In this document: piece by piece, positions 1 through 22,175 of the stretch
How positions within the stretch are numbered: the first letter of the stretch is position 1
Layout of the letters: the number at the start of each line of letters is the position of its first letter
Assembly (NCBI GenBank): GCA_045614365.1
Contig: JAZLCV010000050.1
Span: 1 to 53,115, forward strand
DNA: 53,115 nucleotides
From: Eubacteriales bacterium
GTDB lineage: Bacteria; Bacillota; Clostridia; Oscillospirales; JAAYXM01
Direction of reading: 5' to 3'
The notes under the pieces: model-generated
Databases searched by the model: none
What the model saw: the letters and a program-made list of their open reading frames with translations, nothing else
What the model was told of the DNA's origin: nothing
Program-made: the position numbers and the translations under genes

Positions 1-175
1 TTTCTTTTTCCGAAGACAGCTCGCATATTCTCTCATACGTCCGGTCAGATGAGCCGTCATCTACAAAAATAAACTCGCCTTCAATATTGTTTTCGGAAAG
101 TACGGAATGTATTTCGGAATATGCTTTCCTGATGCATTTTTCTTCATTGTATGCAGGAATAATCACAGATAGCAC
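1..175 (-). CDS. Glycosyltransferase family 2, N-terminal fragment (GtrB/DPM1-like polyprenyl-phosphate glycosyltransferase type); runs off the left edge
   Basis: Not in the ORF track. Reverse translation from GTG (173-175) gives MLSVIIPAYNEEKCIRKAYSEIHSVLSENNIEGEFIFVDDGSSDRTYERICELSSEKE. This is a canonical GT-A N-terminus (IIPAYNEE ... VDDGSSD). A GAGGTG SD lies at 181-186, 5 nt upstream of the start. Confidence 0.6.
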   Translation of the reverse strand, partial: MLSVIIPAYNEEKCIRKAYSEIHSVLSENNIEGEFIFVDDGSSDRTYERICELSSEKE

Positions 176-187
176 AAAATCACCTCG

Positions 188-1552
188 CTATTTTTCAAAT
201 AAAGTTTCAAATTTAGCAACCGGCATCGGACGCGAAAAATAATATCCCTGAAGCATATCACAACCGGCTTCAACGGCTGTCTTCCTATGCTCCTCGGTTT
301 CTATTCCTTCGCATAGTGCTTTACATCCCAGATCATGCGCGGTACGTATGATATTTTTCAGAATTAAAAATCCATTGGGGCTTGTTGCATTCTGCGTTAT
401 TGCCTTGTCAATTTTAACAATGCTGATATCAAAGTCCGACAAATCTCCAAAGCCGGTGTATCCCTTGCCGAAATCATCCAGAAGAATCAGAACACCTTTT
501 TCCTTCAGGCAAGCTAAATTCTTCACCATCATACTTTTTTCTTCATTATTAAGACTTTTATCCTCAAGGATTTCAACCGCAATGCACGAAGAATCGATGC
601 CGTATTTCTCAATGATTTTTATTATATTATCTGCAAATTGTTCATCACAAAGAGTGCTTCTTGAAAAGTTGATTGTATATACATATTTTGCGCGGCTTTC
701 TTTATCGCTGGATATCCATTTGCAATTTTTCTCAAAGATGTAATAATCGAATTTTCCATTCAGCCCTACGTTGCTTACTGCCGAAAGAAAAAAGTATGGT
801 GTAAGCACACCCTCGGTTGGAGAATTCAGACGCGACAGGACCTCCGCGCCTATAAGCTTATTGGTTCCTGCATCCATAATCGGCTGATATTCGAGAAAAA
901 ATCTGTTATTATCAATTTCATTCCGGATGCTGTTCTCAATTTTTATTTTTCTTTCAAACTCTTTTCCGTTTGAATTATCCCACTGACAATACAAAGTGCC
1001 TTTATCTTCAGCCATACTGCACGCCTGCTTTGCTCTTGCGAGTGCAGTCTTAAACGGTACATCGGTTGCGCTGGTGCAATGGTAACCGAAATTTGCACGT
1101 ACAACATTAACCGCACTGTGTTTTACGAAAGCTGCGTTGATTTCTTCAAAGCATCCTGCGATACACTTTTCCGTCGCTTCAGCTTCCCTGCTGCTTAGCA
1201 CAACAAAATTATCTTTACCGTAAATCGAAATTTCTCCGTCAGCAGCAATGCAGAAATGTTCAAATAAAATCCTTTTGATCTGCTCGTACATTCTTCCTGC
1301 TTTTGATTCGGAATACAGCCTCTTCACATTATCGAGTGATATTGAAATATATATAACACAACGATTTTTACGGTCACTTCCCGCTTTCTCAAAATCGCTT
1401 TCTATTTTACCTATACCGCAAAAGCTTTTTTCTGCCGTTCCCTTTGCCGTTTTTACGGATTTAACCGTAAAAAACAGACCTATCAGTCCCATCAGGAAAA
1501 AGATCATCACGAGAATAGTTATGATCACATATGGGTATTCAAAAATATGCAT
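188..1552 (-). CDS. Membrane-anchored c-di-GMP phosphodiesterase (TM, degenerate GGDEF, EAL)
   Basis: 454 aa with an N-terminal hydrophobic helix (VIITILVMIFFLMGLIGLFF). The full EAL signature set is present: YQPI..GAEVLSR (EVL variant), INFS, AVEILED, LDDFGKGYTG, VKIDK, CEGIETEE, LQGYYFSRP. Residues about 60-190 look GGDEF-like, but the motif is GKDNF. An AGGAG SD lies 9 nt before ATG 1552. Confidence 0.85.
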   Translation of the reverse strand: MHIFEYPYVIITILVMIFFLMGLIGLFFTVKSVKTAKGTAEKSFCGIGKIESDFEKAGSDRKNRCVIYISISLDNVKRLYSESKAGRMYEQIKRILFEHFCIAADGEISIYGKDNFVVLSSREAEATEKCIAGCFEEINAAFVKHSAVNVVRANFGYHCTSATDVPFKTALARAKQACSMAEDKGTLYCQWDNSNGKEFERKIKIENSIRNEIDNNRFFLEYQPIMDAGTNKLIGAEVLSRLNSPTEGVLTPYFFLSAVSNVGLNGKFDYYIFEKNCKWISSDKESRAKYVYTINFSRSTLCDEQFADNIIKIIEKYGIDSSCIAVEILEDKSLNNEEKSMMVKNLACLKEKGVLILLDDFGKGYTGFGDLSDFDISIVKIDKAITQNATSPNGFLILKNIIRTAHDLGCKALCEGIETEEHRKTAVEAGCDMLQGYYFSRPMPVAKFETLFEK

Positions 1553-1571
1553 TTTCTAAAACTCCTGTTGC

Positions 1572-2651
1572 CTATTTTTCAAAAATCGGAAATTCCCTTG
1601 TTCCGGCGGTCCGGCGAAGCCCTCTTTCCTTTGCAACCCGCATACATTTTTCAATATCTCTGCGTGCCGTTTTCTTTCGCCGTATGATTTCCTTTGCCAC
1701 AAAGAAAGGATTAAAAGTAAGCATTGCGCGAAAAACATCAGCCTTTGAAGCTCCGCATCTTTTATGCTCTGCCAGAATCTCAAAAAGGGCGTAGTTTATC
1801 GCATTCTTACCAAATTTTTTACCTGCCGCATTTTTAAGCCATCCGGCATAATTTATGAATTTATTTATATCCGCCTGCTCCTTAAAATAGATGCCTCTTA
1901 TATAAAATGCCTGCATCTCTTCATCCATCTTTTCACCAAGCTGTGACTCATAATATTTTTCCTGTATTCTGAGCACCTCTGTGTTCTGTCTATCACGCGT
2001 TGTGCTTGTAATTTGCTTATCATGAAGCCGGTATATCAGAAGACATTCGGGAAGAATTTTCATTTTCTGATTTGCCATCGCCATTCTCGTCCACAGCTCA
2101 AGGTCTTCCGTGCAGGTATGGGTCGGATCATAATTAAATTTTCTCATAACCTCAGACTTTGCAATAACGCCGGGATGCAGGATGGGATTGGCAACAAGAA
2201 GCATAGCGCGAAGTGCACCGAAATCGCACCGACCTCCGGCTCCTCCCGATGCATACACACCGTTCTTGACCGTCATAAACCGACAGGACGACAAAGAAAC
2301 GTCCGGGTTCTTCTCCATAAATTCATACTGTTTTTCAAGTCTTTCCGGAAGGCAGATATCATCTGCATCCATTCTTGCTATGTATTTGCCTTCGCACAGA
2401 GAAATTGCCTTATTAAGAGAAGACGGAAGCTTGAGATTCACCTCATTCGGATGGACCTTTATCCTGTCATCCTTTGCCGCTAAACCGGCAAGGATATCAC
2501 CTGTCGAATCGGTCGAGCAATCGTTTATAACAATAAGCTCCCAATTTTTGAAGGTCTGATTCCTTACGCTTTCTATTGCTTCCGCAAGATACTCTTCACC
2601 GTTATAAACACTCATAATTACTGATATATCCGGTTTCATAATCTGCGTCAC
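1572..2651 (-). CDS. Glycosyltransferase family 2
   Basis: Motifs: ISVIMSVYNGEEYL, VINDCSTDST, MDADD (DXD). The start is either GTG 2651 (GTGA overlap with the upstream stop) or ATG 2639. Confidence 0.85.
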   Translation of the reverse strand: MTQIMKPDISVIMSVYNGEEYLAEAIESVRNQTFKNWELIVINDCSTDSTGDILAGLAAKDDRIKVHPNEVNLKLPSSLNKAISLCEGKYIARMDADDICLPERLEKQYEFMEKNPDVSLSSCRFMTVKNGVYASGGAGGRCDFGALRAMLLVANPILHPGVIAKSEVMRKFNYDPTHTCTEDLELWTRMAMANQKMKILPECLLIYRLHDKQITSTTRDRQNTEVLRIQEKYYESQLGEKMDEEMQAFYIRGIYFKEQADINKFINYAGWLKNAAGKKFGKNAINYALFEILAEHKRCGASKADVFRAMLTFNPFFVAKEIIRRKKTARRDIEKCMRVAKERGLRRTAGTREFPIFEK

Positions 2652-3676
2652 CCTTTCCTGAGAACAGTTTTAATAATTTTGCACAGGTTTAGAAATCTGA
2701 ACGCCACTATGTATTGTTTTCTCTTCATAAGTGACACCGTTATCCTGCTTTTGGGCGAAATTTTTTCAAATTCTGCATTTGAAATCTTTTCACTGTGCAA
2801 AGAATTTATAATATTCGCTTTAAGCGTTTTTGCGCTTTTGAAATGATTTCCTTCGGCTGCCGCCGCAAGTATTGCAAAGCACATAAAGCACGAATACCTG
2901 CACATCTGTTCTTCAAAATCAACAACTTTCCTTATATCCGTCTTGTATATTTCATTTATGATATCTTCCACAAGATAAATCTGTCCTGCATTAAATCCCT
3001 TTGACATTGAACCTTCCCGCACAGTATACAAATACGCGGCTTTGCTGCTTATATATACGCTTTTTGCATCAAGGTAGCAAGGAACAACACAGCACAAATC
3101 TTCCCCCAGCGAGATTTTTTCATTCATATTAAGCTGATGCGGAACAATAATCTCCCGCTTTATTGCTTTGCCTGACAAATAATACGAAATATGGTTCATA
3201 TTTTTGTCCATCAGAAGTCTCGGATAAATATATTTTTCAATATCATTTTCCCCGTAGAAGCCTTCCTCAAGACCGTCGTTTGTGATGTTTACTGTTTTTC
3301 CGTTTTTCACCCATTTATACGAAAAAGATACGATTTCGCAATCCGTTTCTTTTATCCTGTTGTATGCATATTCAAGCGTGTCACGTTCAATAAGGTCATC
3401 AGAATCAAGGTTGAATATGTATTCTCCCTCTGCAATCTTTATACCGGAGCGCCTTGCAGCGGCAAGTCCGGCATTTTCTTTGTGAATAACCTTTATGCGG
3501 GAATCCTTTTTCTTGTAATCATCGCAAATCCCGGAGCAGACATCCTTTGAACCATCATCAACCAAAATAAGCTCGAAATCAGAAAAAGTCTGTCCGAGAA
3601 CACTCTCTACACAAGCGGGTAAATATTCCTCTACATTATAAACAGGCACTATTACAGAAAAAAACATATCCTTCAC
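2648..3676 (-). CDS. Glycosyltransferase family 2
   Basis: Motifs: FSVIVPVYNVEEYL, LVDDGSKD, LDSDD (DXD). The gene abuts its upstream neighbour with no gap. Confidence 0.85.
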   Translation of the reverse strand: MKDMFFSVIVPVYNVEEYLPACVESVLGQTFSDFELILVDDGSKDVCSGICDDYKKKDSRIKVIHKENAGLAAARRSGIKIAEGEYIFNLDSDDLIERDTLEYAYNRIKETDCEIVSFSYKWVKNGKTVNITNDGLEEGFYGENDIEKYIYPRLLMDKNMNHISYYLSGKAIKREIIVPHQLNMNEKISLGEDLCCVVPCYLDAKSVYISSKAAYLYTVREGSMSKGFNAGQIYLVEDIINEIYKTDIRKVVDFEEQMCRYSCFMCFAILAAAAEGNHFKSAKTLKANIINSLHSEKISNAEFEKISPKSRITVSLMKRKQYIVAFRFLNLCKIIKTVLRKG

Positions 3677-4792
3677 CTATCTGCTTTTTAATCCGACGAG
3701 CTTTTTTAGCCGGAAATACAGTCTGCTGCGCAGTCCCACAAGTATTTTTAACAGAAAATATAATCTGTATCTGATCCCGTAAGCGAATATTCTTTGCACA
3801 AAAGGTAATTTGCATATGGGATATGCCTTTAGAGCACTTACGGTAAGGCTGTGAGTGCACACTGTTTTGAGCCTCTTCCTTAACCGGCTGTACTTGATGC
3901 GGTTATCCTCTGCATACATTACCTCCTGCGAGCAGATAACCCTGCACATTGCCTGCCAGAATCTGTAGATATAAATCCTGTATTCTTCAGGCTTTGCCAT
4001 CCTGTCAAACCGTTCTTTGACCTTTTTTACAAACACAAGGCTTTTTTCAAATCTATCCTCTTTGTATCCTTTTGAAATAGACTCTCCGTTTCTACAGTAA
4101 TTGTAAAACGCATCGGCTGTTCCGGTAGCTTTTCGTATACAGGATATATAGTCTATCATAAACAGCGCATCTTCCGAAATTGTCTCTCTCTCGGACTCAA
4201 AAACAATATTGTTCTTTTTTATTATTTCGTGGCGGAACAAATTTTTCCAGATGCTCATCCCATATTTGCTGTCATCCTCATCCTCCGGCAATGCTCCGAC
4301 AATACCGAGCCCCAGCTCACGCAGTTCTTCTTCAGTCTCAAAATTAGTGTCCCCGGTAAAATATGTTTTGCGCTCACAGCCGCCGGCTTCACTGAACATA
4401 GTTCCGTCCACGGACAAAAATCCCGACATCACAAGATCTGAATTGTATTTTTCAGCTTTTTCATAAAGCGTTTTAAACATATCAGGTTCAACGAAATCGT
4501 CAGAATCAACAAATCCGATATATTCACCCGCGGCAATCTGCAGCCCTGCATTGCGCGCAAGTCCCGCGCCTTCATTCTGCTTGTGAATAACCTTTATGCG
4601 AAAATCCTCTGTTGCCATCCTATCGCACATCTGCGGAGATTCATCACGCGAGGAATCGTCCACAAGTATTATCTCAATATCGTCAAGAGTCTGGTTTTTA
4701 AGGGAATTCACGCATCTTTCAAGATACGCTTCTGCATTATATACAGGAACAATAACGCTTACCTTTGGCTGTGTCACGGTCTCACCTCGCAA
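3677..4792 (-). CDS. Glycosyltransferase family 2 with a duplicated basic amphipathic C-terminal tail
   Basis: Motifs: VSVIVPVYNAEAYL, LVDDSSRDES, VDSDD. The start is ambiguous: TTG 4792, or GTG 4777 preceded by AGGTGA. The C-terminus holds a tandem 14-aa repeat. Confidence 0.85.
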   Translation of the reverse strand: MRGETVTQPKVSVIVPVYNAEAYLERCVNSLKNQTLDDIEIILVDDSSRDESPQMCDRMATEDFRIKVIHKQNEGAGLARNAGLQIAAGEYIGFVDSDDFVEPDMFKTLYEKAEKYNSDLVMSGFLSVDGTMFSEAGGCERKTYFTGDTNFETEEELRELGLGIVGALPEDEDDSKYGMSIWKNLFRHEIIKKNNIVFESERETISEDALFMIDYISCIRKATGTADAFYNYCRNGESISKGYKEDRFEKSLVFVKKVKERFDRMAKPEEYRIYIYRFWQAMCRVICSQEVMYAEDNRIKYSRLRKRLKTVCTHSLTVSALKAYPICKLPFVQRIFAYGIRYRLYFLLKILVGLRSRLYFRLKKLVGLKSR

Positions 4793-5990
4793 CTAATTTC
4801 TCGTATTCCTTAATTAAAATATCACTGTACGCTTCAACGCTGAGAATGTTATCTTTTTCTTTTTTGCAATTTTCCCGAAGAGTTCCGTAGTACTCCCCGT
4901 TTTCAACGGTTTCCTTTATTTTTATCGCAATTGCTTCAGGAGTGGGAGTATTTACAAGCGTCCCCGTAACGCCGTCCTTTACAAGCTCTGCCATACCGCC
5001 GCTGTTCATCGTAATAACAGGAACACCCATACAATGCGCTTCAAGAATTGAAAGCGGGCAGTTTTCATAGCATACAGACGGCAAAATAAGAACTTTTGCG
5101 TTTTTCACAAGCTCCGTAAGCCTGTCACCCGTAAGAAATCCCGTAAGTTCAACATTCGGAATACCTTTCAGAACATCCTCGTCCGGGCCGTTTCCTGCGA
5201 CCTTGAAAATATATTCCGGCAAAAGGCGCGCCGTTTCTGCGATGTATCGGGTTCCTTTTTCTTCGGAAAGCCGCCCGACAAACACAATGTAGTTTTCTTC
5301 CTTCCGGTCTGATCCTTTAAAGCTTTCTTTGTTTATAAAGTTATGTACGGTTTTGGTTTTCCCTTTGTAATATTTTTTTGCCGCAAGAAGCTTTTTCTCA
5401 AGGAAATTGCTCGGACAAACAAACAAATCCACCTTTTTGTAAGTGCGCAACCATGAATAAAGCTTTGCCTCAACAACGCCCAAAACGCTTTTGACAACAG
5501 AACCGTGAATGCATTTGTTCTTGATACAGTTGATATGTGAGCCCCCAACGCACTTTTCACAAGGGCAATTTTTATCAAAGTTGTAAAGCAGGTGATTCGG
5601 GCAAATCATCTGATAGTCATGAACGGTCTGAACAAGCGGAACACCCTTTTTCTTAATTCCGTAAATTATAGATGGAGTAAGCTGAAAATTTATGTTGTTC
5701 ATATGAACTATATCCGGCTTGAAATCATCTATTACCTGCATAATTTTCTTTCTTGCCTCAAAGGAATATATTATTTTGAACGGATAGAGAAATCTTCCGA
5801 TTCCTTTCGAGTGAAAATCCATATTCTGCGTGTATTTTCCTGCAGAGTTTCCTACCGTGTTTTTCTCATCATACATTCCGAAATACTCAACATCATGTCC
5901 AATCTTCCGAAGATGTTCACCGAGGGACAGCATATAGCTTTCACTCCCCCCACGCGGGTACAGAAACTTATTTACCATCAGAATCCTCAT
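4782..5990 (-). CDS. Glycosyltransferase family 4 (GT-B)
   Basis: The N-terminus is MRILMVNKFLYPRGGSE. An E-x7-E motif (YENCPLSILEA) is followed by GVPVI. ATGA overlaps the upstream stop at 5987-5990. Confidence 0.85.
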   Translation of the reverse strand: MRILMVNKFLYPRGGSESYMLSLGEHLRKIGHDVEYFGMYDEKNTVGNSAGKYTQNMDFHSKGIGRFLYPFKIIYSFEARKKIMQVIDDFKPDIVHMNNINFQLTPSIIYGIKKKGVPLVQTVHDYQMICPNHLLYNFDKNCPCEKCVGGSHINCIKNKCIHGSVVKSVLGVVEAKLYSWLRTYKKVDLFVCPSNFLEKKLLAAKKYYKGKTKTVHNFINKESFKGSDRKEENYIVFVGRLSEEKGTRYIAETARLLPEYIFKVAGNGPDEDVLKGIPNVELTGFLTGDRLTELVKNAKVLILPSVCYENCPLSILEAHCMGVPVITMNSGGMAELVKDGVTGTLVNTPTPEAIAIKIKETVENGEYYGTLRENCKKEKDNILSVEAYSDILIKEYEKLVAR

Positions 5991-7291
5991 AACAACGAGT
6001 CACTTTCCTCTTCTCTGTTTTCTTCTGAAACATATCCAAACAACTTAAGCTCTTTGTTTCGCACATTTTCATCAAAGCTGTTTCCCATCATAAGCATTGC
6101 CAGAACGCCCGTAAGTAACGGATAGTTCATTGTATTGTCCGTTGAAGATACGATTATAAGGTATACGGTAAGCATAAACGTGATTATTGCATTTTCCACG
6201 TTACCGTGCCTTCCGAAATACCACACGCGAACCAGCGTCATCGAAACAAGCCATATAATATATCCCCAGAAGCCAAGATCAATGAAATGCTGGAGAAAAT
6301 CGTTATGAATCGAGGCAACGCCTATGTTCATAAATGTATTGAGCTGATATGTGAGAAACCCTATTCCGTTACCTGCAAAGCCCGGATCAAACTCATAAAA
6401 ATCATCTACGGCATTATAAATCCCGACACGGCCGCTCGTGTTTATTCCGGCTTTTTCCAGAAGCGCGAACGCATCTCCCTTTATAAGGGCAATATATCCT
6501 ATAAGAAGGAGAATTACGGCAACAGTAAACAGTGTAACAAGCCTGCTCGCTGTTTTTTTATTATAATGCGCAATGAATTTTAAAAGATATCCGAACATAA
6601 GCGCTATTACAATTGCGATAATTGCAATTCGTTTGAACGCCGACAGGAAACAGAAAACGCTTAAAATGAGCAAAATGAAATATACTGCATCCTTTCGTGG
6701 TTTAAAAAGCATATATATAAGATATGCACCAAGACAGAATGCAAGCTCGTGAATTTCTGCCTGAACAATAATATCTCCAGTTACATCTGCAAACGTAACT
6801 ACAAGAGTTACGAATTCCGAAAAGTAATTTCCTATGCCATTCTCTGCAATAACCGTAATAATCATAAGTATGTTGGCAATCAGAATGGCAAGAAGATTAT
6901 ACCATACACCGCGCTTGCCGAAGATATAAAGCATTGCTCCGGCTGCCAGCGCAAAGGACAGCATATTCATATATACAAATGAGCTTGAAAGTCCTCTTGA
7001 AATAACGCTGATATCCACCGTTTCCATAAACCATATAAACAGTGAAACCGCAGTGGTAACGGCAAGCGGAATACTGTAAATGCACGCCTCGCTAAAAGCC
7101 GTAAAACCTCTTGCAATATTAGGTTTGTACAAGAAAATCAGTGTTGCGGAAAAGAAGAGAACAAGGGCAAACGCGTGGCGGTATGTAACATGCAAGCCCA
7201 AATCAATGTATTCATTGAGAAAATAATACATCATCACCGCTATAACCATAAAGTAAAACGCTTTTGTTTTTTGGAGAAGCTTACCTTCCAC
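5987..7291 (-). CDS. Wzy-type polymerase / O-antigen-ligase-like polytopic membrane protein
   Basis: 434 aa, hydrophobic almost throughout with many predicted helices. It sits in a Wzx/PCP/GT context. GTG start with a GGGGGGA SD. The assignment rests on topology and context, not on a diagnostic motif. Confidence 0.6.
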   Translation of the reverse strand: MEGKLLQKTKAFYFMVIAVMMYYFLNEYIDLGLHVTYRHAFALVLFFSATLIFLYKPNIARGFTAFSEACIYSIPLAVTTAVSLFIWFMETVDISVISRGLSSSFVYMNMLSFALAAGAMLYIFGKRGVWYNLLAILIANILMIITVIAENGIGNYFSEFVTLVVTFADVTGDIIVQAEIHELAFCLGAYLIYMLFKPRKDAVYFILLILSVFCFLSAFKRIAIIAIVIALMFGYLLKFIAHYNKKTASRLVTLFTVAVILLLIGYIALIKGDAFALLEKAGINTSGRVGIYNAVDDFYEFDPGFAGNGIGFLTYQLNTFMNIGVASIHNDFLQHFIDLGFWGYIIWLVSMTLVRVWYFGRHGNVENAIITFMLTVYLIIVSSTDNTMNYPLLTGVLAMLMMGNSFDENVRNKELKLFGYVSEENREEESDSLL

Positions 7292-7324
7292 GCAACTGTC
7301 CCCCCTTTCTTCCGAAAACTATAA

Positions 7325-9190: not shown

Positions 9191-9211
9191 TTTTATCCTC
9201 CCTCAGATAAC

Positions 9212-10567: not shown

Positions 10568-10587
10568 TTTTCATATCCCTCACAAAA

Positions 10588-11820: not shown

Positions 11821-11839
11821 ATTAAATAAACCTTTACTT

Positions 11840-12958: not shown

Positions 12959-12978
12959 TTTATTCACTCCAAATCCGA

Positions 12979-13659
12979 TTACCTGCCGGTAGCCGTAAGC
13001 ATAACTATCGGCGTTTTAAGCATTATCTTCAAGTCATTGCGATATGTTCTTGTCTGTATGTATTCTATATCCATTTCTACCCACTGTTCAAACGGAATAT
13101 CATTCCTGTTTTTTGAAATCTGCCACGTGCAAGTTATGCCGGGCGTAACAAGAAGCCTCAGTTTCTGATAATCCGTATAGAACTCTACCTCTCTCGGAAG
13201 AGGCGGTCTCGGCCCGACAAGTGTCATATCTCCCTTTAGAACATTGAAAAACTGCATAAGCTCGTCAAGAGAAACTTTTCTTAAAAATTTCCCGACTCTC
13301 GTTATACGTGGGTCCTCCTTCATTTTGAACACCGGACCGTCCATTTCATTCTGCTTTGCCAGCTGCTCAATCATCTTATCTGCATTGGCACGCATAGTAC
13401 GGAATTTATACATATAAAATTCTTTTCCGTGCCGCCCCACTCTTATCTGTTTGTAAAACGGTCCTGCACTCCTGTCGTCAATCACTATTACAATAGAAAT
13501 CAAAATCATAAGCGGCAGGAAAAACAACAAAATCAATGTTGCAAAAAAGATGTCGAAAAGCCTTTTCTTTTTCCAGTATGAAGCATATGATTTTTCGATG
13601 ATTGCTTCCAGCTTTTCTCTTGTTTTCGCGTCTACCTTTTCTTGCTCGATGTATGGCAT
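12979..13659 (-). CDS. Small (monotopic-type) undecaprenyl-phosphate sugar phosphotransferase, the priming enzyme
   Basis: Bacterial sugar transferase signature: KRLFDIFFATLILLFFLPLMILISIVIVI, YKFRTM, LVGPRPPLPRE. Confidence 0.9.
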   Translation of the reverse strand: MPYIEQEKVDAKTREKLEAIIEKSYASYWKKKRLFDIFFATLILLFFLPLMILISIVIVIDDRSAGPFYKQIRVGRHGKEFYMYKFRTMRANADKMIEQLAKQNEMDGPVFKMKEDPRITRVGKFLRKVSLDELMQFFNVLKGDMTLVGPRPPLPREVEFYTDYQKLRLLVTPGITCTWQISKNRNDIPFEQWVEMDIEYIQTRTYRNDLKIMLKTPIVMLTATGR

Positions 13660-14525
13660 TACAGCACACTTCTTTCTGACATTTTCATTACAGAATCAAA
13701 TTCTGTTTTTCTGTTTTCTGATATATAAAATTTTTTGAACACTACATTTTTATCTTTAAGCCCGGAGCCGTTTTTATCTGTATACCCCGGATGGAACAAC
13801 ACTTCTATATCTCTCTTTTTCTTTTCCGCCGCTCTGATATACCCGGGCAGAATTTTGCTTACCCTTTTTTCATCCATTTTTCCCGAAAAAAGAATTCCGA
13901 AAAATTGCGCTGTTGGTATTTTTCGTTTCTTTGCCTGCTTTTTGTTGAACAGCCATAAGAAATTTAAAAGCCATTGTTTGATAACATTTACCGTACTGTA
14001 TGTAAAATAAAGCGACGGCATTTTTATGTAAGGGAAAATCGGCTCTGCCGGAATTCTTACGTATTCGGGATTGATTTTTTCATCATCCATAACCTTAATC
14101 AACACCCTGAACACAGCGGGAATCATATGTGTATGCTGATGGCTGTCAATGCAAAACGGAGCATCACCGGAAAGCTTTTCTTTCCAGAATGAAATCTGCG
14201 CTTTGATTTCTTTATAAACCTGCTCTTCAAATTTTTTTCTGCGGAAGAAGCTTTGCATCATCAGCCCGGTAAAAGTATGCCTCAGTTTTCCTGTCTTATC
14301 TGCAATAAGCGGAATTTTCTGTGCATTTGCCATACACTTTCCTTCAACAAGGTTGAGATGCAAAGAAACGCGGATATCCTTCCCGTTACGTATTTTCTGC
14401 AGATCCACCTCATCAAAATTCGGAAATACGCTGACCTTATTCAGCGCACCTTTATCAATGCACTGCTGTATATGACCGGAAATTTCTTCACACAGCCCGT
14501 AATCATCTGCACAAAAATATATCAC
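13659..14525 (-). CDS. YdjC/ChbG/HpnK-family carbohydrate deacetylase
   Basis: Motifs: FCADDYGL, HLNLVEG, DSHQHTHM, FHPGY. Its stop overlaps the start of the priming transferase by 1 nt (TAATG). Confidence 0.75.
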   Translation of the reverse strand: MIYFCADDYGLCEEISGHIQQCIDKGALNKVSVFPNFDEVDLQKIRNGKDIRVSLHLNLVEGKCMANAQKIPLIADKTGKLRHTFTGLMMQSFFRRKKFEEQVYKEIKAQISFWKEKLSGDAPFCIDSHQHTHMIPAVFRVLIKVMDDEKINPEYVRIPAEPIFPYIKMPSLYFTYSTVNVIKQWLLNFLWLFNKKQAKKRKIPTAQFFGILFSGKMDEKRVSKILPGYIRAAEKKKRDIEVLFHPGYTDKNGSGLKDKNVVFKKFYISENRKTEFDSVMKMSERSVL

Positions 14526-16093
14526 CTGTACTCACCTTCCGGTCCAAGCTTTATGACTATTGTACCGTCCACTGCCGCCACGCTGTCCTTCGCCGGCCAT
14601 TCCCCCATAGACTGAACCTTCTCGTTTTGCGCAAGCATTCTTTTTTCTTCTCCTGCCAAAAACTCGTAATCCATTTCGCAATAGTCGTGCAATGCACTGC
14701 TAAGCACACTCTGGGCTACCTTTTCATCGTCTGCCCGAAGTATATATCCATCCGTTACTCCGGTAATGTCCGGCGGCAAGTTGGAGCTATAGCGCTCGCT
14801 GTTTTCAAGAGCACCAAGCACAAGAATTTTTTTGCAATCCTCTGCGCCGTCGGTCTGTTCTATACGGTCTGCTATACGCACCAGAACGCCGTAGGATTTT
14901 TCGTATGCAATTTGCGCCTTATGGTAGCTTACATTCGATATAACAATCTGATTTGCTATTATTAACAGTGCTGCCGTAAGCACTGCCCAGCGTTTTATAC
15001 ATATATGCTTTTCGTTTTCGTCCGTTCCTCGTTCATAAAGCACGAGGAAAAAAATATAAAAAACAGAGTATCCCATCAACATAAGATTGTGATAGTCAGC
15101 CGACGGATTTATAAAAGCCAGTGCACCCGCACCAAATACAAGTGCGACGCCTGTTGCAATAACGGCAAAAAGCTCAATGGGTTTTCTGTAAATCTTATTC
15201 TTTACTATATACTTAATATAATAGAAAAACGTAAACAACAAAACAAAAACATTCAGAATAACATATATGCTTATTCCCTTTGAAAAATCAAAAAAGCAAC
15301 TGATAAATGTTTCCTTGATTACATAAAGAGAACTGACTAAATCTACGTTTGACAACGATACCGTCGAATTGATTCCCTGATAATCAAGCAGCTCTGCGGA
15401 AGAAACAGCGAGAATTGCTTTGAGTATGATGCTGTAAAGTATCATACCCGAGATCCCCGCAAGAAGCATACACACGCTTTTTTTCAGAAGGATAAAAAAT
15501 TCTGTGCGCCGGTAAATTATCTGATCGATCAACCAAAGAAGAATCAGCATGATCGTAACGGTTATGTACGCCTGATAAACGCCCACCGACAGCGCGATAA
15601 GCACCACGGAAATAATATATCCGCCTTTTCCTTTGATCATATACAGCGCCGCAAGCGTTGAAAGAAAGAATGCGATACTATAACCGTCTGCCACATAGTT
15701 ATACATCATAACAGATGTAACCGTAGGGAAAGAAACAATTATTGCACCTATTAAAAACGCAGTAATTTTTTCACGGATATTAAGTATCCTGCAGATACAC
15801 ACAGCCCCAAGTGCATGGAACAGAACCGCTATGATTCCGTTTAAAAACGGCAGATCGTAAAAAGAGCTGATGGAACACACAACGGGCAAAAACCATCGTC
15901 CGAGACCAACCATATTCTGCGGATCGTATCTGAACACCAGCGAATCCCAATTCGGAAGCCAGTTTGTTATCTTATACAGATGTGCAATCATCCCAACCGC
16001 AATAGCTGCAAAAAAGCAAACCTTCCATTCCGGCAAAATATATGCATTAAGTTTTTTCAATACCTTTTCAGGCAATATTACCACTCCAACCAT
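14522..16093 (-). CDS. GtrII-like polytopic glycosyltransferase (putative GT-C fold) with a C-terminal extracytoplasmic domain
   Basis: 523 aa with about 10 N-terminal helices and a soluble C-terminal third. The N-terminal pattern AHLYKITNWLPNWDSLVFRYDPQNMVGLGRWFLP recalls the Glucos_trans_II family. It co-occurs in the operon with GtrA and a GtrB-like GT2. Confidence 0.55.
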   Translation of the reverse strand: MVGVVILPEKVLKKLNAYILPEWKVCFFAAIAVGMIAHLYKITNWLPNWDSLVFRYDPQNMVGLGRWFLPVVCSISSFYDLPFLNGIIAVLFHALGAVCICRILNIREKITAFLIGAIIVSFPTVTSVMMYNYVADGYSIAFFLSTLAALYMIKGKGGYIISVVLIALSVGVYQAYITVTIMLILLWLIDQIIYRRTEFFILLKKSVCMLLAGISGMILYSIILKAILAVSSAELLDYQGINSTVSLSNVDLVSSLYVIKETFISCFFDFSKGISIYVILNVFVLLFTFFYYIKYIVKNKIYRKPIELFAVIATGVALVFGAGALAFINPSADYHNLMLMGYSVFYIFFLVLYERGTDENEKHICIKRWAVLTAALLIIANQIVISNVSYHKAQIAYEKSYGVLVRIADRIEQTDGAEDCKKILVLGALENSERYSSNLPPDITGVTDGYILRADDEKVAQSVLSSALHDYCEMDYEFLAGEEKRMLAQNEKVQSMGEWPAKDSVAAVDGTIVIKLGPEGEYR

Positions 16094-16812
16094 TTGAATT
16101 TATGCAAAAATTTTCCGTACAGCTTATTATATAGCTTCACGCCGATAATCCGTTTTATGAACAGCGTTCGTTTTGCAACCGAAGATATCCATGATGCGCA
16201 AAAATGATGTATTGAATAAGTGTTATCGGTTATTTCTTTTCTTCCGGTATAATATTTCATCGGACACAGATAATCTTCAGGCAACATCTGTATTCCCATA
16301 AAGACCTGTTTTTTGTTATCTATGTCCATACCGAGCTTCACCACAACTTTTGTGTTTCTGTCAGGACACGGAGTGAGGTCGTATGTGCCGTCAGGAAGGA
16401 CAAAAGATATTCCGGCATAATCCTCAAGAATCGCCCCGACCAGCTCATTTCCTTTTTCACACGCAAAGCCGAGCCCGGTTGAAATGACTCCATTATCGTC
16501 AAAACCCATATATCCCGATTCAGCGATAAGCTTATCAATAGGTTTTATGAGTTCAACGTCTGTATCAAAATAAATCCCGCCATTGTCATAAAGTATCTTA
16601 AGCCTTGCATAATCACTTACAAAAGCCCATTTCCCGGCTTCATATGCCTCTGCTGCATATCTGTTCTGACTTACATCGAAGTTTTCTTCATTTATACAGA
16701 CTATTTCATAATCAGGACAATGCTTTTTCCAGCTGTTTATGCATTTCTGCGCGAGCTTTGGAAGCTCGTTTTTTCCAAACCAACAATAATAAATCACTTT
16801 AGGAATGCTCAT
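16078..16812 (-). CDS. Glycosyltransferase family 32-like (Gly_transf_sug / OCH1-type DXD enzyme)
   Basis: Motifs: IPKVIYYCWFGKNELP, SDYARLKILYDNGGIYFDTDVEL (DXD). Confidence 0.8.
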   Translation of the reverse strand: MSIPKVIYYCWFGKNELPKLAQKCINSWKKHCPDYEIVCINEENFDVSQNRYAAEAYEAGKWAFVSDYARLKILYDNGGIYFDTDVELIKPIDKLIAESGYMGFDDNGVISTGLGFACEKGNELVGAILEDYAGISFVLPDGTYDLTPCPDRNTKVVVKLGMDIDNKKQVFMGIQMLPEDYLCPMKYYTGRKEITDNTYSIHHFCASWISSVAKRTLFIKRIIGVKLYNKLYGKFLHKFKWLEW

Positions 16813-18314
16813 GTATTTTTCTTCCCCTTATACAATTCAAAAACAGTTTTGAAAGCATCTCTGTTAAACACAAAATTCACAATAAGGAATAACCCTGCAA
16901 TCCATACCGAATGAATAACACCGTTGAGCAACAGCCTTAAAAAGGAAATATTGCTGAATGTATCGACGAAAAACACAACCATAATTACGGCAAAAACCGC
17001 CCAGTTGGAAAACAGAATTTTATATGTACACAGCTGACTTCTTTTCAGTATTTTTCTGTTTGAATAGTAAATTGTAACTATGCTTCGATACACAAGCGCT
17101 GCAATTGTTCCGAGGATTGCTCCGCATATCCCGATATGCATAATTGCCACAACCGATGCCGTTATATTTATCAGCATTTCCCATATTGCGTGAGAACGGG
17201 TTTTTTCAAAATGCCCGGAATACTCAATAATACCGGTTGCGGGGAGCTTTCCGCACGCAAGCAAATTCATTATTACAAACAGTAGCACGAGAAATGCATT
17301 CGTATACTCCGCATCGTTTATTCCGTTTGTGTATATCTGTATCAGCGGCAACAAGAAAACTGCCATAAGCGTATAAATAAGGCAGGTGATCATCACATAA
17401 AACGCTTCATATGCATTGAACAGCTTATCAAATCTTTCTCTGTCTGTATGAAACATCTGTCCCAACGCAAAGGTGAAGGAAGAAACTACGCTTGTTATAA
17501 AATTCTGCACCTGTGAAAAGAATATGTTATATATTGCATAAATACTTACTGCCTTAAAATCACAAAGAACGGAAATAAGTATTATATCGGTATTGTTGAA
17601 CACCATTCCGGAAATCTGATGCACCAGAACTGAATTTTTCTGCGAAATAGCTTTAAAATCCGGCTTTGCCTTTAAATTGAGCCATGTATATCTGCGTTTC
17701 GCGTAAACATATAAAAAAACAAGCTGAACAAGAGCAATTATACAATAAACAAGCTGGATGAGAATAAGGCTGTCTGTAAGCAGAAGAACAAGTATTTTCC
17801 CTGCATTTGAGAGAATCTGAAGCGCGGTTTCCGCGTTATTCAGCACATATTTTCTGCCATCGACCTCCATAAGTATTCTATATTTTGCCTGAACAAAATA
17901 ACTGAACAGCGCCGGAATTGCATTCAATATAATTATAAAAAACAGAACACCGCTGTCTATTGATGTCGGTATCGCAAAAGAATATACGGTTGCAATCACA
18001 AGAACGAGAATAAGGTAAACTATTCCTGTTTTGATATAATACGAATTGGTTGCCGAAAGAACCGAGCTTGCGCCCGCATAATCCTTCTCTCCTATTCTTT
18101 TATACAGAGCCTGCGTTGTGGCAAGACCTACTCCCGCCTCAAGAAGACACATGTAAGTAAAAATCTGCTTTATCGTAGAAAGAACTCCATTTACCTCAGA
18201 ACCGAAATTCTCAAGATACAATCTCGGCAAAAGAAAGCTGAGCGATATAAGTACAACCTGATATACAAGCGACGACACCAAGTTATTCTTAATTCTCGAA
18301 TCTTTACTTTCCAC
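16809..18314 (-). CDS. Wzx-type oligosaccharide flippase (MOP superfamily)
   Basis: Polytopic throughout, about 12-14 helices, with a typical Wzx N-terminus (NLVSSLVYQVVLISLSFLLPRLYL). The start is set at GTG 18314, 7 nt after GGAGG. The track start at 18413 would overlap gtrA by 59 nt. Confidence 0.8.
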   Translation of the reverse strand: MESKDSRIKNNLVSSLVYQVVLISLSFLLPRLYLENFGSEVNGVLSTIKQIFTYMCLLEAGVGLATTQALYKRIGEKDYAGASSVLSATNSYYIKTGIVYLILVLVIATVYSFAIPTSIDSGVLFFIIILNAIPALFSYFVQAKYRILMEVDGRKYVLNNAETALQILSNAGKILVLLLTDSLILIQLVYCIIALVQLVFLYVYAKRRYTWLNLKAKPDFKAISQKNSVLVHQISGMVFNNTDIILISVLCDFKAVSIYAIYNIFFSQVQNFITSVVSSFTFALGQMFHTDRERFDKLFNAYEAFYVMITCLIYTLMAVFLLPLIQIYTNGINDAEYTNAFLVLLFVIMNLLACGKLPATGIIEYSGHFEKTRSHAIWEMLINITASVVAIMHIGICGAILGTIAALVYRSIVTIYYSNRKILKRSQLCTYKILFSNWAVFAVIMVVFFVDTFSNISFLRLLLNGVIHSVWIAGLFLIVNFVFNRDAFKTVFELYKGKKNT

Positions 18315-18354
18315 CTTGCCACCTCCCGCTCTGAAGTAAATAAAGTCTGTCACC

Positions 18355-18786
18355 TTATTTTTCTTTTGACTCAAGAAAAATTTTCCTTGTTGTGAAGTTA
18401 TAAACCGGCACAATTACCATTGCGAAGATTTTCACTATCAGGTAATATACCGACGTAAACTTAACCCCAAGCCATAAAATCAGCTGATTTAAACCCAAAC
18501 CACCAATGCTTAGCAATACAAAAATTATAAATTCGTAAACCTTGCTTTGCTTTTTGCTTTTAAAAACAAATGCCATACTTAAGAGATAGTTCACCGTGAC
18601 GGAAGCACAAAAGGAAATTGCGGATGAAAGAAGAATCTCCATATGCAAAAGCTCTTTTAATACAACAAGAACTCCCACATCCACAACGGCGGCTATAACG
18701 CCAACTATTGCAAACTTAATCAGTTGCATTGTCAATTTGTGATTTCCCCCGTTCACCGTAAACTTTATTCCTTGGCAAAAACCCAA
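18355..18786 (-). CDS. GtrA-family small membrane protein
   Basis: About 140 aa with 4 helices and the signature LIKFAIVGVIAAVVDVGVLVVL. The start is TTG 18786 (AGGAGA SD, overlapping the DGC 3' end) or ATG 18729. Confidence 0.8.
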   Translation of the reverse strand: MGFCQGIKFTVNGGNHKLTMQLIKFAIVGVIAAVVDVGVLVVLKELLHMEILLSSAISFCASVTVNYLLSMAFVFKSKKQSKVYEFIIFVLLSIGGLGLNQLILWLGVKFTSVYYLIVKIFAMVIVPVYNFTTRKIFLESKEK

Positions 18787-21077
18787 AGAGTCTCTCCTGC
18801 ATCGTCTTTATTATCAGTTAAATTGTGCACGCTTAGCTTTACAATTTCGCCATGCGTTTTCTTATATGTAATTGACGGAGTTTTCCCCTCTGCTATTTGT
18901 CTTTTTATCGCATCATAGTTCAAGAAGCTCACAACGGCTCTGTTGAAATCCGGATGCACCATATCGTGAATGTATTTTGAGAACAGCTTTGAGAAGTTTT
19001 CTTCATCTTCTTTATATCCGAGATATGATGGCATAAGAATACGGTGGGCACTGTCGTTTTCCAGCGATACTCTGTAAATACCGTTATAATGCTCTTTCAT
19101 AACCGATATCATCGCATCAATTTCCCTGATGCCGGTTTTCGTGAAAACGTAGCTTTCCTCTTTCTCTTTCGAAAGGCTTGTATGCTCTTTATTCTGATAA
19201 TAACGCGCTTTCTCCTCATACATCCGTATCTCGGCTTCTCTTACCATTTCCTCACAGTTTGTGTTCTGCGTTCTGTAAGAAGTGCCTATAGCTACATTAT
19301 ATCCCCTCGGTTTTAATTCTTCGATAAATGTTTCTATGCTGTCCTTAATGCTTTCCTGAGAGACCTTTTCCGCGAACACCAAAAATTCATCTCCGCCCAT
19401 ACGATAAACGCGGTGTCCGAAAAACACCTCTTTCAGCGTATTGGCAATGTAGATAAGCATTTCATCACCGGCGGCATGTCCGAACTTATTATTTATGGTA
19501 TGAAGCTCGTTTACATCAACGTAAATGCATGAAAAATCCTCCGGCTTTTCGCTGTCAAACACCGGAATGTCTTTTTTATACGATACACGATTCAACGCTC
19601 CGGTAAGAGAATCCGTCATCGCCGCAAGTTCTGTTTTATTGAGGTGCTTTTTGTTGTACATTGCAATCGAGAAACAAACAGCAACATCTTCAAAAATCTT
19701 TCTTGCAACAGAGCTTTTCTTCGGGTTGATGGTTCCGAGAATGCTTACATGGTTGTTCTTATCTGCTATGATTGCAAACGACACGTCTTTTATCTCATGC
19801 TTTATCAGGAATGAATACAGCTCTGTGTTTGTTCCCATAAGATGCTTGTTCGGTATAATCTGCATAACTCCGATAGAGGACTTGCTTGCACTGTGAATAT
19901 TTGCGGCGTATCGGAAAATCTCGCTCTGAAAATACGTTCTGTCTTCTCCCATCAAAAGCTTTTCCGCCAAAGACGGGTTGATATAGCAATAATCTTCGCC
20001 ATCAGTGTTCGCAAAAAAAGCAGAGCGCGAACCACAAAAATGCTTTATTCTTTTCATTGCTTCGGTTACGTTGGTGTACTGCTCGTTTGTTTCCAGAAGA
20101 AGCTTTCTTATAGCCGAAGATTCTGCATTCAAACGGCTTCTGCTTCTTTCGCTTTTCATTATCAATTGCAGATAGAATGCTATAATCAGAATAATCACAG
20201 CAAAAGTCATAAGCAAATTACGCGAAATCCTGTGCGATTCAGCAAACACCTGACTTTCATAACGAGCAAGCATAATGCCCCAGTTGAAATCCTCAAGCGT
20301 AGAGTAATGAACATACAAATTCTCGCCCGTGCGTATTGACTTGAAAGAGGAATATCCCTTATCCGTAGTTGCCAGTTCTTCATAAGAATAGTTGTCGTTA
20401 TATTCTCTGGTTTTGAGATCCAAAAGCTCTCCCGGTTCTTCGCTGATTGTATCTATAACAAACTTTCCGGTTTCTTTGTCATATACAAAGAGCTGTGCAT
20501 CAAGCTCCTTTGCCATCCCATTATACTTCTTGCCGATGGTTTCAAGCCGGATAACGCCGTACATAATACCGACGGTTTCGCCATTCACCTGAATCGGAAC
20601 TCCGCTTCGGATTACCTCTTCACCGGGAATTGAGTAGCTTACGGTTCTACCGGTAATATGCTCTCCTTTTAAGGCTTCTTTTTCAAAAGAAAGCTTTCCG
20701 CTGAGATTAAAGTTCCCGTCTTTAGTGATAAAAATGTCGTTCGGAGTTAAGATTCCGATTCTTGCAAACAAGCCGATGGGCTTGAACGAATCAAACATTC
20801 TGTCGTAGTTCTCGCCATCGGCATAAAGCTTTGCCGCAAAGTTTGCCATAGTGATAAGGTTTTCCCTATCGGACTTCAGCTGTAAAGTAAGGTCATCCTT
20901 GATTTGCTTTGTCTGGATATGCAACATTTCGTAAGCTTCATTCTCTGCTTTAAAAAAGAAGGAAGCAACCAAATTCAAAAACACCGCACATATTAAGACC
21001 GCAGCAATGACAGTGTATAAAATATTGTTTTCTCTCTGCTTCTTTCTTTCGTAAGTTATTGCCATTTCCACCTTCAT
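18765..21077 (-). CDS. Sensor diguanylate cyclase (TM, dCache-like, TM, GAF-like, GGDEF, extra C-terminal PAS-like domain)
   Basis: 770 aa with two TMs flanking a periplasmic-type domain of about 240 aa. The GGDEF domain is intact: DSLTGALNR, VDVNELHTINNKFGHAAGDEML, YRMGGDEFLVFA (GGDEF at 19383-19397). About 130 aa follow the cyclase domain. Confidence 0.85.
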   Translation of the reverse strand: MKVEMAITYERKKQRENNILYTVIAAVLICAVFLNLVASFFFKAENEAYEMLHIQTKQIKDDLTLQLKSDRENLITMANFAAKLYADGENYDRMFDSFKPIGLFARIGILTPNDIFITKDGNFNLSGKLSFEKEALKGEHITGRTVSYSIPGEEVIRSGVPIQVNGETVGIMYGVIRLETIGKKYNGMAKELDAQLFVYDKETGKFVIDTISEEPGELLDLKTREYNDNYSYEELATTDKGYSSFKSIRTGENLYVHYSTLEDFNWGIMLARYESQVFAESHRISRNLLMTFAVIILIIAFYLQLIMKSERSRSRLNAESSAIRKLLLETNEQYTNVTEAMKRIKHFCGSRSAFFANTDGEDYCYINPSLAEKLLMGEDRTYFQSEIFRYAANIHSASKSSIGVMQIIPNKHLMGTNTELYSFLIKHEIKDVSFAIIADKNNHVSILGTINPKKSSVARKIFEDVAVCFSIAMYNKKHLNKTELAAMTDSLTGALNRVSYKKDIPVFDSEKPEDFSCIYVDVNELHTINNKFGHAAGDEMLIYIANTLKEVFFGHRVYRMGGDEFLVFAEKVSQESIKDSIETFIEELKPRGYNVAIGTSYRTQNTNCEEMVREAEIRMYEEKARYYQNKEHTSLSKEKEESYVFTKTGIREIDAMISVMKEHYNGIYRVSLENDSAHRILMPSYLGYKEDEENFSKLFSKYIHDMVHPDFNRAVVSFLNYDAIKRQIAEGKTPSITYKKTHGEIVKLSVHNLTDNKDDAGETLWVFAKE

Positions 21078-21171
21078 CTTCTTTCTACCAATCGATTATA
21101 TCCCGCCAAAATATTCGCCGGATATTTACCTGTAATATACAACTATGGCATTGTATTATATATTCTGTTTA

Positions 21172-21200
21172 ATTATATCACATGCTTCATAGAAAATCAA
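21172..21200 (-). promoter_or_regulatory. Sigma-A-type promoter of the glycan operon
   Basis: On the minus strand: TTGATT (21195-21200), a 17-nt spacer, then TGaTATAAT (extended -10; TATAAT at 21172-21177). This leaves a leader of about 90 nt before ATG 21077. Confidence 0.5.
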
Positions 21201-21219: not shown

Positions 21220-21248
21220 TTGAATTTTTTACTTTTTTCAGTTATAAT
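21220..21248 (+). promoter_or_regulatory. Sigma-A-type promoter of the lipid kinase gene
   Basis: TTGAAT (21220-21225), 17 nt, TATAAT (21243-21248). Confidence 0.5.
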
Positions 21249-21279
21249 AGACACAGTTCGACATAAGGGTGATGGGAAT

Positions 21280-22143: not shown

Positions 22144-22145
22144 TA

Positions 22146-22168
22146 AAAGCCGCCCAATGGGCGGCTTT
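22146..22168. terminator. Bidirectional intrinsic terminator between convergent genes
   Basis: AAAGCCGCCC-aat-GGGCGGCTTT hairpin, with T-runs available on both strands. Confidence 0.75.
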
Positions 22169-22175
22169 CAGCTTT

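Follow-up and report, generated by a model that had tools for sequence, protein, structure and literature searches.

A conserved glycan locus of uncultured gut Clostridia encodes a co-polymerase-like protein with a dead GGDEF domain together with a predicted diguanylate cyclase and c-di-GMP phosphodiesterase

The window analysed here, a stretch of 53,115 nucleotides (nt) from a lineage of uncultured gut Clostridia, carries at its left end a glycan locus on the minus strand. Its genes, c01 to c18 in reading direction, combine enzymes of heteropolysaccharide synthesis with three membrane proteins that contain GGDEF or EAL domains, i.e. a putative sensor diguanylate cyclase (c01), a protein resembling polysaccharide co-polymerases (PCPs) that ends in a degenerate GGDEF domain (c11), and a putative phosphodiesterase for cyclic di-GMP (c-di-GMP; c17). 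The original prediction, made from the nucleotide sequence, had regarded these proteins as writer, candidate reader and eraser of a c-di-GMP circuit that is hard-wired into a single operon of the Wzx/Wzy type. The rest of the window, which contains the dcw/ftsZ cluster along with additional core genes, encodes no other GGDEF or EAL protein.

The 18 consecutive minus-strand open reading frames described from 21077 leftwards can all be found, 17 of them complete between 21077 and 188 and the 18th starting at about 176 and running off the left edge; the N-terminus of the latter (VLSVIIPAYNEE...FVDDGSSDRT) is GT2/GtrB-like. Direct reading of the junctions confirmed the overlaps GTGA at 2648-2651, ATGA at 5987-5990 and 16809-16812, and TAATG at 13657-13661, whereas the junction at 14522-14525 is GTGA and not ATGA as had been stated. 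The packing is tight, although with the most plausible start codons the gaps between c01 and c18 reach up to about 43 nt instead of the 40 nt given as maximum. About 90 nt of leader separate c01 from an upstream σ70-like promoter (21172-21200, minus strand; TTGATT, a spacer of 17 nt and a TG-extended TATAAT), which was recognised by a promoter scan and by reading of the sequence and scores 10/12. Thus, the site that had been called the one good promoter is real, but two internal promoter-like sites on the same strand score higher (11/12; 17959-17932 and 14149-14122). Altogether, promoter-like sites are not commoner than expected by chance (46 as compared to 52.9 ± 7.7 in shuffled sequences), and terminator-like sites do not clearly depart from shuffles either (24 found, 15.9 ± 4.8 expected). 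All minus-strand terminator-like matches are weak and lie within coding sequence, none of them in an intergenic gap, in line with the claim that the genes are not interrupted by a hairpin terminator. The G+C content is 38-42% in the glycan locus and 44-50% in the remaining window. From this organisation we infer a single conserved operon, 21 kb or more in length, that continues past the left edge and is read as one transcript. To judge from its genes, the operon builds a heteropolysaccharide on undecaprenyl phosphate, and the lineage it comes from belongs to the uncultured gut Clostridia.

At the centre of the locus is c11 (7325-9190, minus strand, as all genes of the locus), for which Pfam, the prediction of transmembrane (TM) segments and an AlphaFold2 (AF2) model indicate a first TM segment (residues about 6-24), a Wzz-like outer domain of about 400 residues, a second TM segment (about 437-455) and a cytoplasmic GGDEF domain (residues 466-604; Pfam E = 3.2e-11). 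The AF2 model, calculated from an alignment of 53 sequences, has a predicted local distance difference test score (pLDDT) of 76.8 and reaches Foldseek TM-scores, normalised by target length, of about 0.7 with GGDEF domains; a single-sequence AlphaFold model was discarded (pLDDT 36.9). As the signature that aligns with the GGDEF motif of c01 and with the GGEEF motif of structure 6EIB reads GNGSF, c11 cannot be a cyclase, and the assignment of a degenerate GGDEF domain to this cistron is borne out by signature, fold and Pfam match alike. Nevertheless, YTDHLT, N475, R476, D480, YNGNGSF and R598 are kept in 78/78 orthologs, and among 38 distant relatives with 26-48% identity N475 is found in all, D480 in 35, and R598 is nearly invariant. 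By these patterns the domain is dead, yet under strong constraint. N475 and D480 are the counterparts of N335 and D344 of PleD, the guanine-base contacts of the GGDEF active site, and c11 may bind a guanine nucleotide via a remnant active-site pocket.

The outer domain of c11 contains a Cys-rich stretch (about 8065-8160, residues 344-375) with C344, C354, C358, C362, C369 and C373 on the extracytoplasmic side. It follows residues 291-332, which are of low confidence in the AF2 model, is partly kept in the family consensus (CxGxC...TC), and its cysteines may pair in disulfides or bind a metal.

The neighbour of c11, c10 (9212-10567), is a membrane protein without GGDEF domain and without Pfam match that always adjoins c11 and is a distant paralog of its outer domain (BLASTP E = 3e-5 over 366 residues). 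In the model of c11, β/α elements are followed by long helices, all located between the TM helices, with a last strand preceding the second TM helix. Neither c10 nor c11 matches the Pfam family Wzz (PF02706). However, Wzz is the sole Pfam family besides GGDEF that recurs among 38 diverse relatives of c11, at E <= 1 in 23 and at E <= 1e-3 in two of them, the matches always cover the first TM segment and the region following it at the N-terminus, and one relative, the unfused protein P0337 (470 residues), lies above the gathering cut-off (29.4 vs 25.5 bits). When the whole c11 model was compared to the PDB by Foldseek the top 50 matches were all GGDEF structures, so that a Wzz fold of residues 1-460 is neither confirmed nor refuted. 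A profile of alignment A1 searched against PDB sequences retrieved GGDEF chains only and no Wzz or Wzc chain, and hhalign comparisons of the family alignments of c03, c10, c11 and c12 with WzzB, Wzc, RfbX, WzxC, WbbH and WcaD from E. coli K-12, the target sequences being taken from L089, gave no significant result, the best being residues 12-84 of alignment A3 versus residues 31-111 of Wzc (E ~0.02). Taken together, 'PCP-like' is the best reading of c10 and c11 and very probably correct, with formal membership in the class weakly shown. Of the PCP-GGDEF fusion that had been proposed, the fusion to a GGDEF domain and the topology with two TM segments stand, whereas a Wzz match of c11 itself is missing. 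As no locus protein has a Walker A motif ([AG]xxxxGK[ST]) and no kinase family appears in the Pfam results, c11 is not a PCP-2 module; in agreement with this, the locus encodes neither a bacterial tyrosine kinase (BY-kinase) nor any protein with a Tyr-rich tail.

The first gene, c01 (18765-21077), probably starts at M5 (21065), and its orthologs comprise 766 residues. Two TM helices flank a dCache-like outer domain (dCache_1 match of 26.9 bits, below the cut-off of 45 bits), and a cytoplasmic linker leads to a GGDEF domain (Pfam E = 1.6e-18) with RMGGDEF motif, followed by a C-terminal domain. The GGDEF domain aligns with that of the active diguanylate cyclase of T. maritima (4URS), and in 21 orthologs with 71-85% identity R559, G561, G562, D563, E564 and F565 of the RMGGDEF motif as well as D489 (DxLTG), N496, R497, D503, D521 and K623 are invariant. 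c01 lacks an RxxD inhibitory site (I-site). From its catalytic motifs c01 looks like an active diguanylate cyclase, just as its description as a dCache-like sensor with intact RMGGDEF had implied. The C-terminal domain of about 140 residues (18768-19190, residues about 630-770) is strongly conserved and has no Pfam match, and the cytoplasmic linker of about 170 residues that precedes the GGDEF domain matches no family.

Near the other end of the locus, c17 (188-1552) consists of one TM segment, an N-terminally truncated, dead GGDEF domain (GKDNF) and an EAL domain (Pfam E = 1.8e-57) with all catalytic motifs. Residues 60-452 align with the GGDEF-EAL structure of MorA (4RNH), GKDNF being opposite GGDEF. 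EVLxR, N295, E327/E330, DDFG, K380/D382, EGxE and QG are kept in 67/67 sequences, i.e. c17 and its orthologs, so that the domain composition given for this cistron proved correct and c17 looks, by its catalytic motifs, like an active membrane-anchored phosphodiesterase.

Other proteins or RNA elements through which c-di-GMP could act were looked for within the locus. Rfam gave no match that reached the gathering score anywhere in the window, nor any relevant one at E <= 1 in the leader, and control by a GEMM riboswitch was rejected on these grounds. Regular-expression scans of the locus proteins for a PilZ motif (RxxxR...D/NxSxxG) and for the 24-residue MshEN motif were negative, and no PilZ family is among the Pfam results for these proteins; effectors with PilZ, MshEN or Walker A motifs in other locus proteins were rejected accordingly.

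The remaining genes constitute, according to their families, a Wzy-type heteropolysaccharide set combined with a Gtr-type set for extracytoplasmic glycosylation. Synthesis of the repeat unit would be initiated by c07 (12979-13659), a phosphoglycosyl transferase of the small Bac_transf type (Pfam Bac_transf E = 6.6e-65; NCBIfam EPS_sugtrans). Extension of the repeat unit would be carried out by c04 (16078-16812), a GT32-type glycosyltransferase with DXD motif (Pfam Gly_transf_sug and Caps_synth), by c08 (11840-12967), a DUF1972/Cps2T-like GT4 glycosyltransferase (Pfam, NCBIfam), and by four further glycosyltransferases assigned by Pfam, c13 (4782-5990; GT4), c14 (3677-4792; GT2), c15 (2648-3676; GT2) and c16 (1572-2651; GT2). 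The repeat unit would presumably be flipped across the membrane by c03 (16809-18413), a polytopic membrane protein with 12 predicted TM segments that is kept in distant loci, and would then be polymerised by c12 (5987-7291). The latter is a Wzy-like protein with a Wzy_C match slightly below the Pfam cut-off (E = 1e-6; 29.1 vs 31.7 bits), and its orthologs in the distant loci L084 and L086 have an unmarked Wzy_C match. c03 matches no Pfam or NCBIfam family, and hhalign with RfbX and WzxC was not significant. Hence, the Wzy-type glycan genes of the proposed Wzx/Wzy pathway are in place, but the Wzx flippase is presumed from the number of TM segments in c03 and from a BLASTP comparison in which c03 weakly matches a Polysacc_synt protein of locus L088 (E = 0.003). 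An additional sugar would be attached extracellularly by c02 (18355-18786), a small GtrA-like membrane protein (Pfam GtrA_DPMS_TM E = 2.5e-25), c18 (1-176), a GtrB-like GT2 protein cut by the window edge whose ortholog of 308 residues follows c17 in most related loci, and c05 (14522-16093), a GtrII-type membrane glucosyltransferase (Pfam Glucos_trans_II E = 6.2e-44), whereas c06 (13659-14525), a YdjC-like carbohydrate deacetylase (Pfam YdjC E = 9.5e-39), would remove acetyl groups.

c09 (10588-11877), the first gene of the core that is conserved in distant relatives, encodes a metallophosphoesterase (Pfam Metallophos; NCBIfam YaeI and LpxG) with a single TM anchor, and TM prediction places its catalytic domain outside the cell. 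An enzyme facing outwards could process a polymer linked via undecaprenyl diphosphate or a phosphodiester; the locus encodes no LCP ligase. The N-terminal cytoplasmic extension of c09, about 110 residues long (11500-11877, residues 1 to about 120), matches no family. The proteins of the close clade have it, as do those of some distant loci (forms of 412-433 residues), while other distant loci encode forms of 281-340 residues that lack it.

Searching species-representative genomes with c11 yielded 172 matches, all of them in metagenome-assembled genomes of uncultured gut Clostridia from ruminants and humans that are labelled Oscillospiraceae, Acutalibacteraceae, Monoglobaceae, Congzhengia or Aphodoplasma, and about 80 of these loci were fetched. 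In them c02 to c17 are syntenic at 50-96% identity, with 70-95% for the locus as a whole, and c17 is found in practically every close locus whose flank is long enough. c01 lies just outside the 10-kb flank in most fetched loci; its C-terminus is visible in 13 of them, in L081 and L082 it is located directly upstream of the GtrA gene, and c01 orthologs come from many of the contigs that also carry c11 orthologs. Variants exist, i.e. in L023 c01 is found at the opposite end, behind c17, and L049, L068 and L070 do not have it immediately upstream. The G+C content of the glycan locus is about 6-8% lower than that of the dcw/ftsZ region, yet gene order and sequence are kept across more than 60 species-level genomes, and the conserved locus looks more like the genes for a housekeeping envelope polymer than like those for a diversifying capsule.

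About 24 related loci contain a second, stand-alone EAL protein of 260 residues with intact motifs that is encoded after the GtrB-like c18 (e.g. at 19905-20687 in L004; also in L006, L007, L009-L011, L018-L021 and others). It precedes the locus in L075 (2-550), whereas L001-L003, the relatives nearest to the window, lack it; the window itself stops short of the corresponding position.

Beyond the close clade, an exhaustive search of representatives for the c11 family gave 1020 clusters at E <= 1e-3, with 133 of the clusters (50% identity) reaching E <= 1e-30; both fused forms of about 600 residues and unfused forms of about 450 residues are included, and a metagenome scan with the narrower alignment A5 gave 16 loci. 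The distant set finally consisted of 22 loci with 32-55% identity (among L083-L105), about 11 of which have at least 8 kb of context. In these 22 loci the order of a c09-like metallophosphoesterase, a c10-like protein, a c11-like protein and Wzy is kept wherever the contig reaches. Several of them carry signalling enzymes close to this core: a 7TM-GGDEF protein with RYGGDEF (4213-5379) stands at the head of L086, in L100 (4650-6173) and L104 (4725-6242) a multi-TM/PAS-like GGDEF protein with RLGGDEF is encoded immediately upstream of c09, and L099 (17529-18941) harbours a protein with TM segment, dead GGDEF and EAL domain like c17. L083 encodes a GGDEF protein on the far side of the dnaK operon, at a distance of 9 kb upstream. 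The cyclases of distant loci match c01 in the GGDEF domain only (E about 1e-10 to 1e-14), and because they are not orthologous to c01 the signalling enzymes appear to have been recruited repeatedly and independently. This suggests that the PCP-GGDEF core is the invariant feature, to which writers and erasers were added several times and in which they became fixed in the clade of the window. Of all the evidence available, the recurrent recruitment argues most strongly for a functional tie of the core to c-di-GMP. As about half of the distant loci contain neither a diguanylate cyclase nor an EAL protein within 10 kb, hard-wired writers and erasers are specific to the clade of the window. The set of signalling genes in the original prediction is typical of the close loci, c17 being present in essentially all of them and c01 heading the locus where it is visible, apart from the variants, but not of the family as a whole. 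Overall, the original interpretation is supported in part. The co-occurrence of signalling genes and core, which had been suggested as a check, turned out mostly favourable, with c17 retained and with non-orthologous cyclases or a c17-like EAL protein recurring near the core.

Based on these findings we consider it an evenly balanced question whether c-di-GMP is coupled to Wzy-type assembly through c01, c11 and c17. In such a coupling an external cue would activate c01 via the dCache-like outer domain, and the c-di-GMP level would then rise in the vicinity of the membrane complex. The GGDEF domain of c11 would sense a guanine nucleotide, not by an I-site but via the remnant pocket formed by N475 and D480, which would change the oligomeric state or the activity of the c10/c11-Wzy assembly, and c17 would finally reset the signal. 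Going further, we propose only tentatively, and expecting to be wrong rather than right, that c10 and c11 may represent a class of co-polymerases not described so far, in which a dead GGDEF domain replaces the BY-kinase, reads c-di-GMP or another guanine nucleotide and in this way controls Wzy-dependent polymerisation or chain length post-translationally.

Several results weigh against this proposal. The RxxD motif of the I-site is found in none of the 78 orthologs of c11 and in none of the 38 distant relatives, the corresponding position, five residues upstream of the signature, being occupied by KSKT, whereas every characterised receptor for exopolysaccharide (EPS) synthesis that has a degenerate GGDEF domain uses RxxD (PssE, PMC4125290; PelD, PMC7112168). 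Because the family has no I-site, c11 is not a receptor of the PelD/PssE type; this candidate was rejected, the expectation of a reader working by an I-site was not borne out, and a reader role is left to draw on genomic context and on the conserved residues of the guanine pocket. According to the alignment c11 has also lost the metal-binding and phosphate-binding residues of active cyclases, including the phosphate-binding K/R. Furthermore, six of the about 11 distant loci (L084, L085, L087, L088, L093 and L096) encode no diguanylate cyclase or EAL protein within 10 kb, yet keep N475 and D480, so that the pocket may serve GTP, another ligand or the structure of the domain. The sub-threshold Wzz score of c11 and the Foldseek list filled by GGDEF structures count against the co-polymerase assignment, and the internal promoter-like sites against the single transcript.

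The GGDEF domain of c11 might not read c-di-GMP at all, but might be a sensor of GTP or another guanine nucleotide, or a structural or dimerisation module for the docking of partners, such as the corresponding domain of c01 or of c17, with the c-di-GMP from c01 acting on an effector encoded elsewhere or having no part in this pathway. The degenerate GGDEF domain of Caulobacter PdeA is a GTP sensor that uses its remnant active site, and in c11 the base-binding N and D, together with the D-x-LTG-x-x-NR motif at the N-terminus, are all that has survived; the missing I-site and the distant loci in which the core stands without adjacent cyclase or EAL protein fit such a role as well. On the other hand, non-orthologous cyclases and a c17-like EAL protein have been recruited repeatedly beside the core in separate clades, the locus contains no other recognisable effector of c-di-GMP, and conservation of the domain is strong throughout its length in the very clade that keeps c01 and c17. 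We regard this alternative as possible, but would not expect it to be the case.

Direct coupling through c11 also has to be weighed against the idea that c01 and c17 are passengers that set the global c-di-GMP pool, e.g. for the choice between motility and adhesion, and do not regulate the polymer. Without I-site the output of c01 would not be self-limited, its position in L023, L049, L068 and L070 indicates loose positional coupling, and the stand-alone EAL protein comes and goes among relatives. However, the retention of c17 in essentially all close loci with sufficient flanks, the physical fusion of a GGDEF-fold domain to a core assembly protein and the independent recruitment of cyclases in distant clades make this idea unlikely. 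Finally, that c10 and c11 are not PCPs but some other bitopic coiled-coil envelope protein of glycan loci, such as a sensor or scaffold, would agree with their scores below the Wzz threshold, with a mere two of 38 relatives reaching E <= 1e-3 and with a PDB profile search that retrieved no Wzz or Wzc chain and non-significant hhalign comparisons with WzzB and Wzc, but is very unlikely, as their topology and order of secondary structure elements (α/β base, long helices, two TM segments) fit the PCP class, Wzz is the sole recurring non-GGDEF signal and always N-terminal, P0337 passes the Wzz cut-off, and the genes invariably lie beside Wzy in a locus that offers no other PCP candidate.

Post-translational control by c-di-GMP is well established for synthase-dependent systems, i.e. 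for BcsA, Alg44, PelD, PssE and NfrB. For Wzx/Wzy pathways, control by c-di-GMP is to our knowledge known through transcription factors only. The closest parallels to the locus described here are PssE and PelD, the latter from the Pel systems of Gram-positives and Pseudomonas, where a dead GGDEF domain is encoded inside a polysaccharide operon of a Firmicute, or of the Firmicute version of the system, and where dedicated pairs of cyclase and phosphodiesterase control the polymer (PMC4125290; PMC7112168). PssE of Listeria monocytogenes (pssA-E) binds with a Kd of 0.79 uM and has the RxxD motif (PMC4125290), and PelD works with CdgF and CdgE (PMC7112168). In contrast to c11, which is fused to a Wzz-like domain, is part of a Wzy-type locus and belongs to a family without RxxD, these proteins serve synthase-dependent systems with a processive GT2 enzyme or PelF and bind their ligand by an RxxD I-site. 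A further difference is that in the present locus cyclase and phosphodiesterase are encoded inside the same operon.

With Wzc, a PCP-2a protein, c11 shares the succession of a first TM segment, a large helical outer domain, a second TM segment and a cytoplasmic domain of nucleotide-binding fold, as well as the position beside Wzy, and the metal-dependent phosphoesterase gene c09 is located nearby as CpsB is with CpsCD, an analogy that extends to gene arrangement only. Unlike PCP-2a and PCP-2b systems (Wzc; CpsC/CpsD and CapA/CapB), c11 has neither Walker A/B motifs nor a Tyr-rich tail, its cytoplasmic domain having the GGDEF fold instead, and unlike the phosphatases of PCP-2 systems, which are of the PHP or low-molecular-weight tyrosine phosphatase type, c09 is calcineurin-like and predicted to face outwards. 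A review from 2025 names the C-terminal kinase as the only type of cytoplasmic domain in PCPs, attributes control of Wzx/Wzy at the level of assembly to tyrosine phosphorylation of PCP-2 (BY-kinase) proteins and mentions c-di-GMP for synthase-dependent systems only (PMC12220298). A cyclase dedicated to one polysaccharide machine, which thus comes under local c-di-GMP control, is known from E. coli NfrB/DgcJ (PMC8669469), although NfrB is a GT2 synthase with an MshEN domain, whereas no MshEN or PilZ motif occurs here. In M. xanthus, EpsI/Nla24 provides a case of c-di-GMP influencing a Wzx/Wzy pathway (PMC7484181), by transcription factors, however, and not by a domain fused to the co-polymerase. 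Neither a fusion of Wzz or PCP to GGDEF nor a report on c-di-GMP in this lineage was found in the literature that we searched, which was an incomplete set.

If the proposed role of c11 holds true, a GGDEF domain in the position of the kinase would provide Wzy assembly with a second means of control, served by its own cyclase and phosphodiesterase in one clade and by unrelated cyclases in others, and there may be a mode of ligand binding by degenerate GGDEF domains that is independent of the I-site. The c11 family is common among the otherwise uncharacterised gut Clostridia of ruminants and humans. Ligand binding by its soluble domain of about 165 residues could be tested with recombinant protein despite the hosts being uncultured.

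Two features outside the glycan locus may be added. Next to the dcw cluster, just past its mraW end, the window encodes in the opposite orientation a small alarmone synthetase of 229 residues with a RelA_SpoT domain (41522-42211, plus strand). A strong bidirectional terminator hairpin (22144-22170; 12 pairs, 7 of them G-C) sits between the convergent genes for a DAGK/YegS-like protein (21220-22143, plus strand) and a MATE protein (22176-23543, minus strand).

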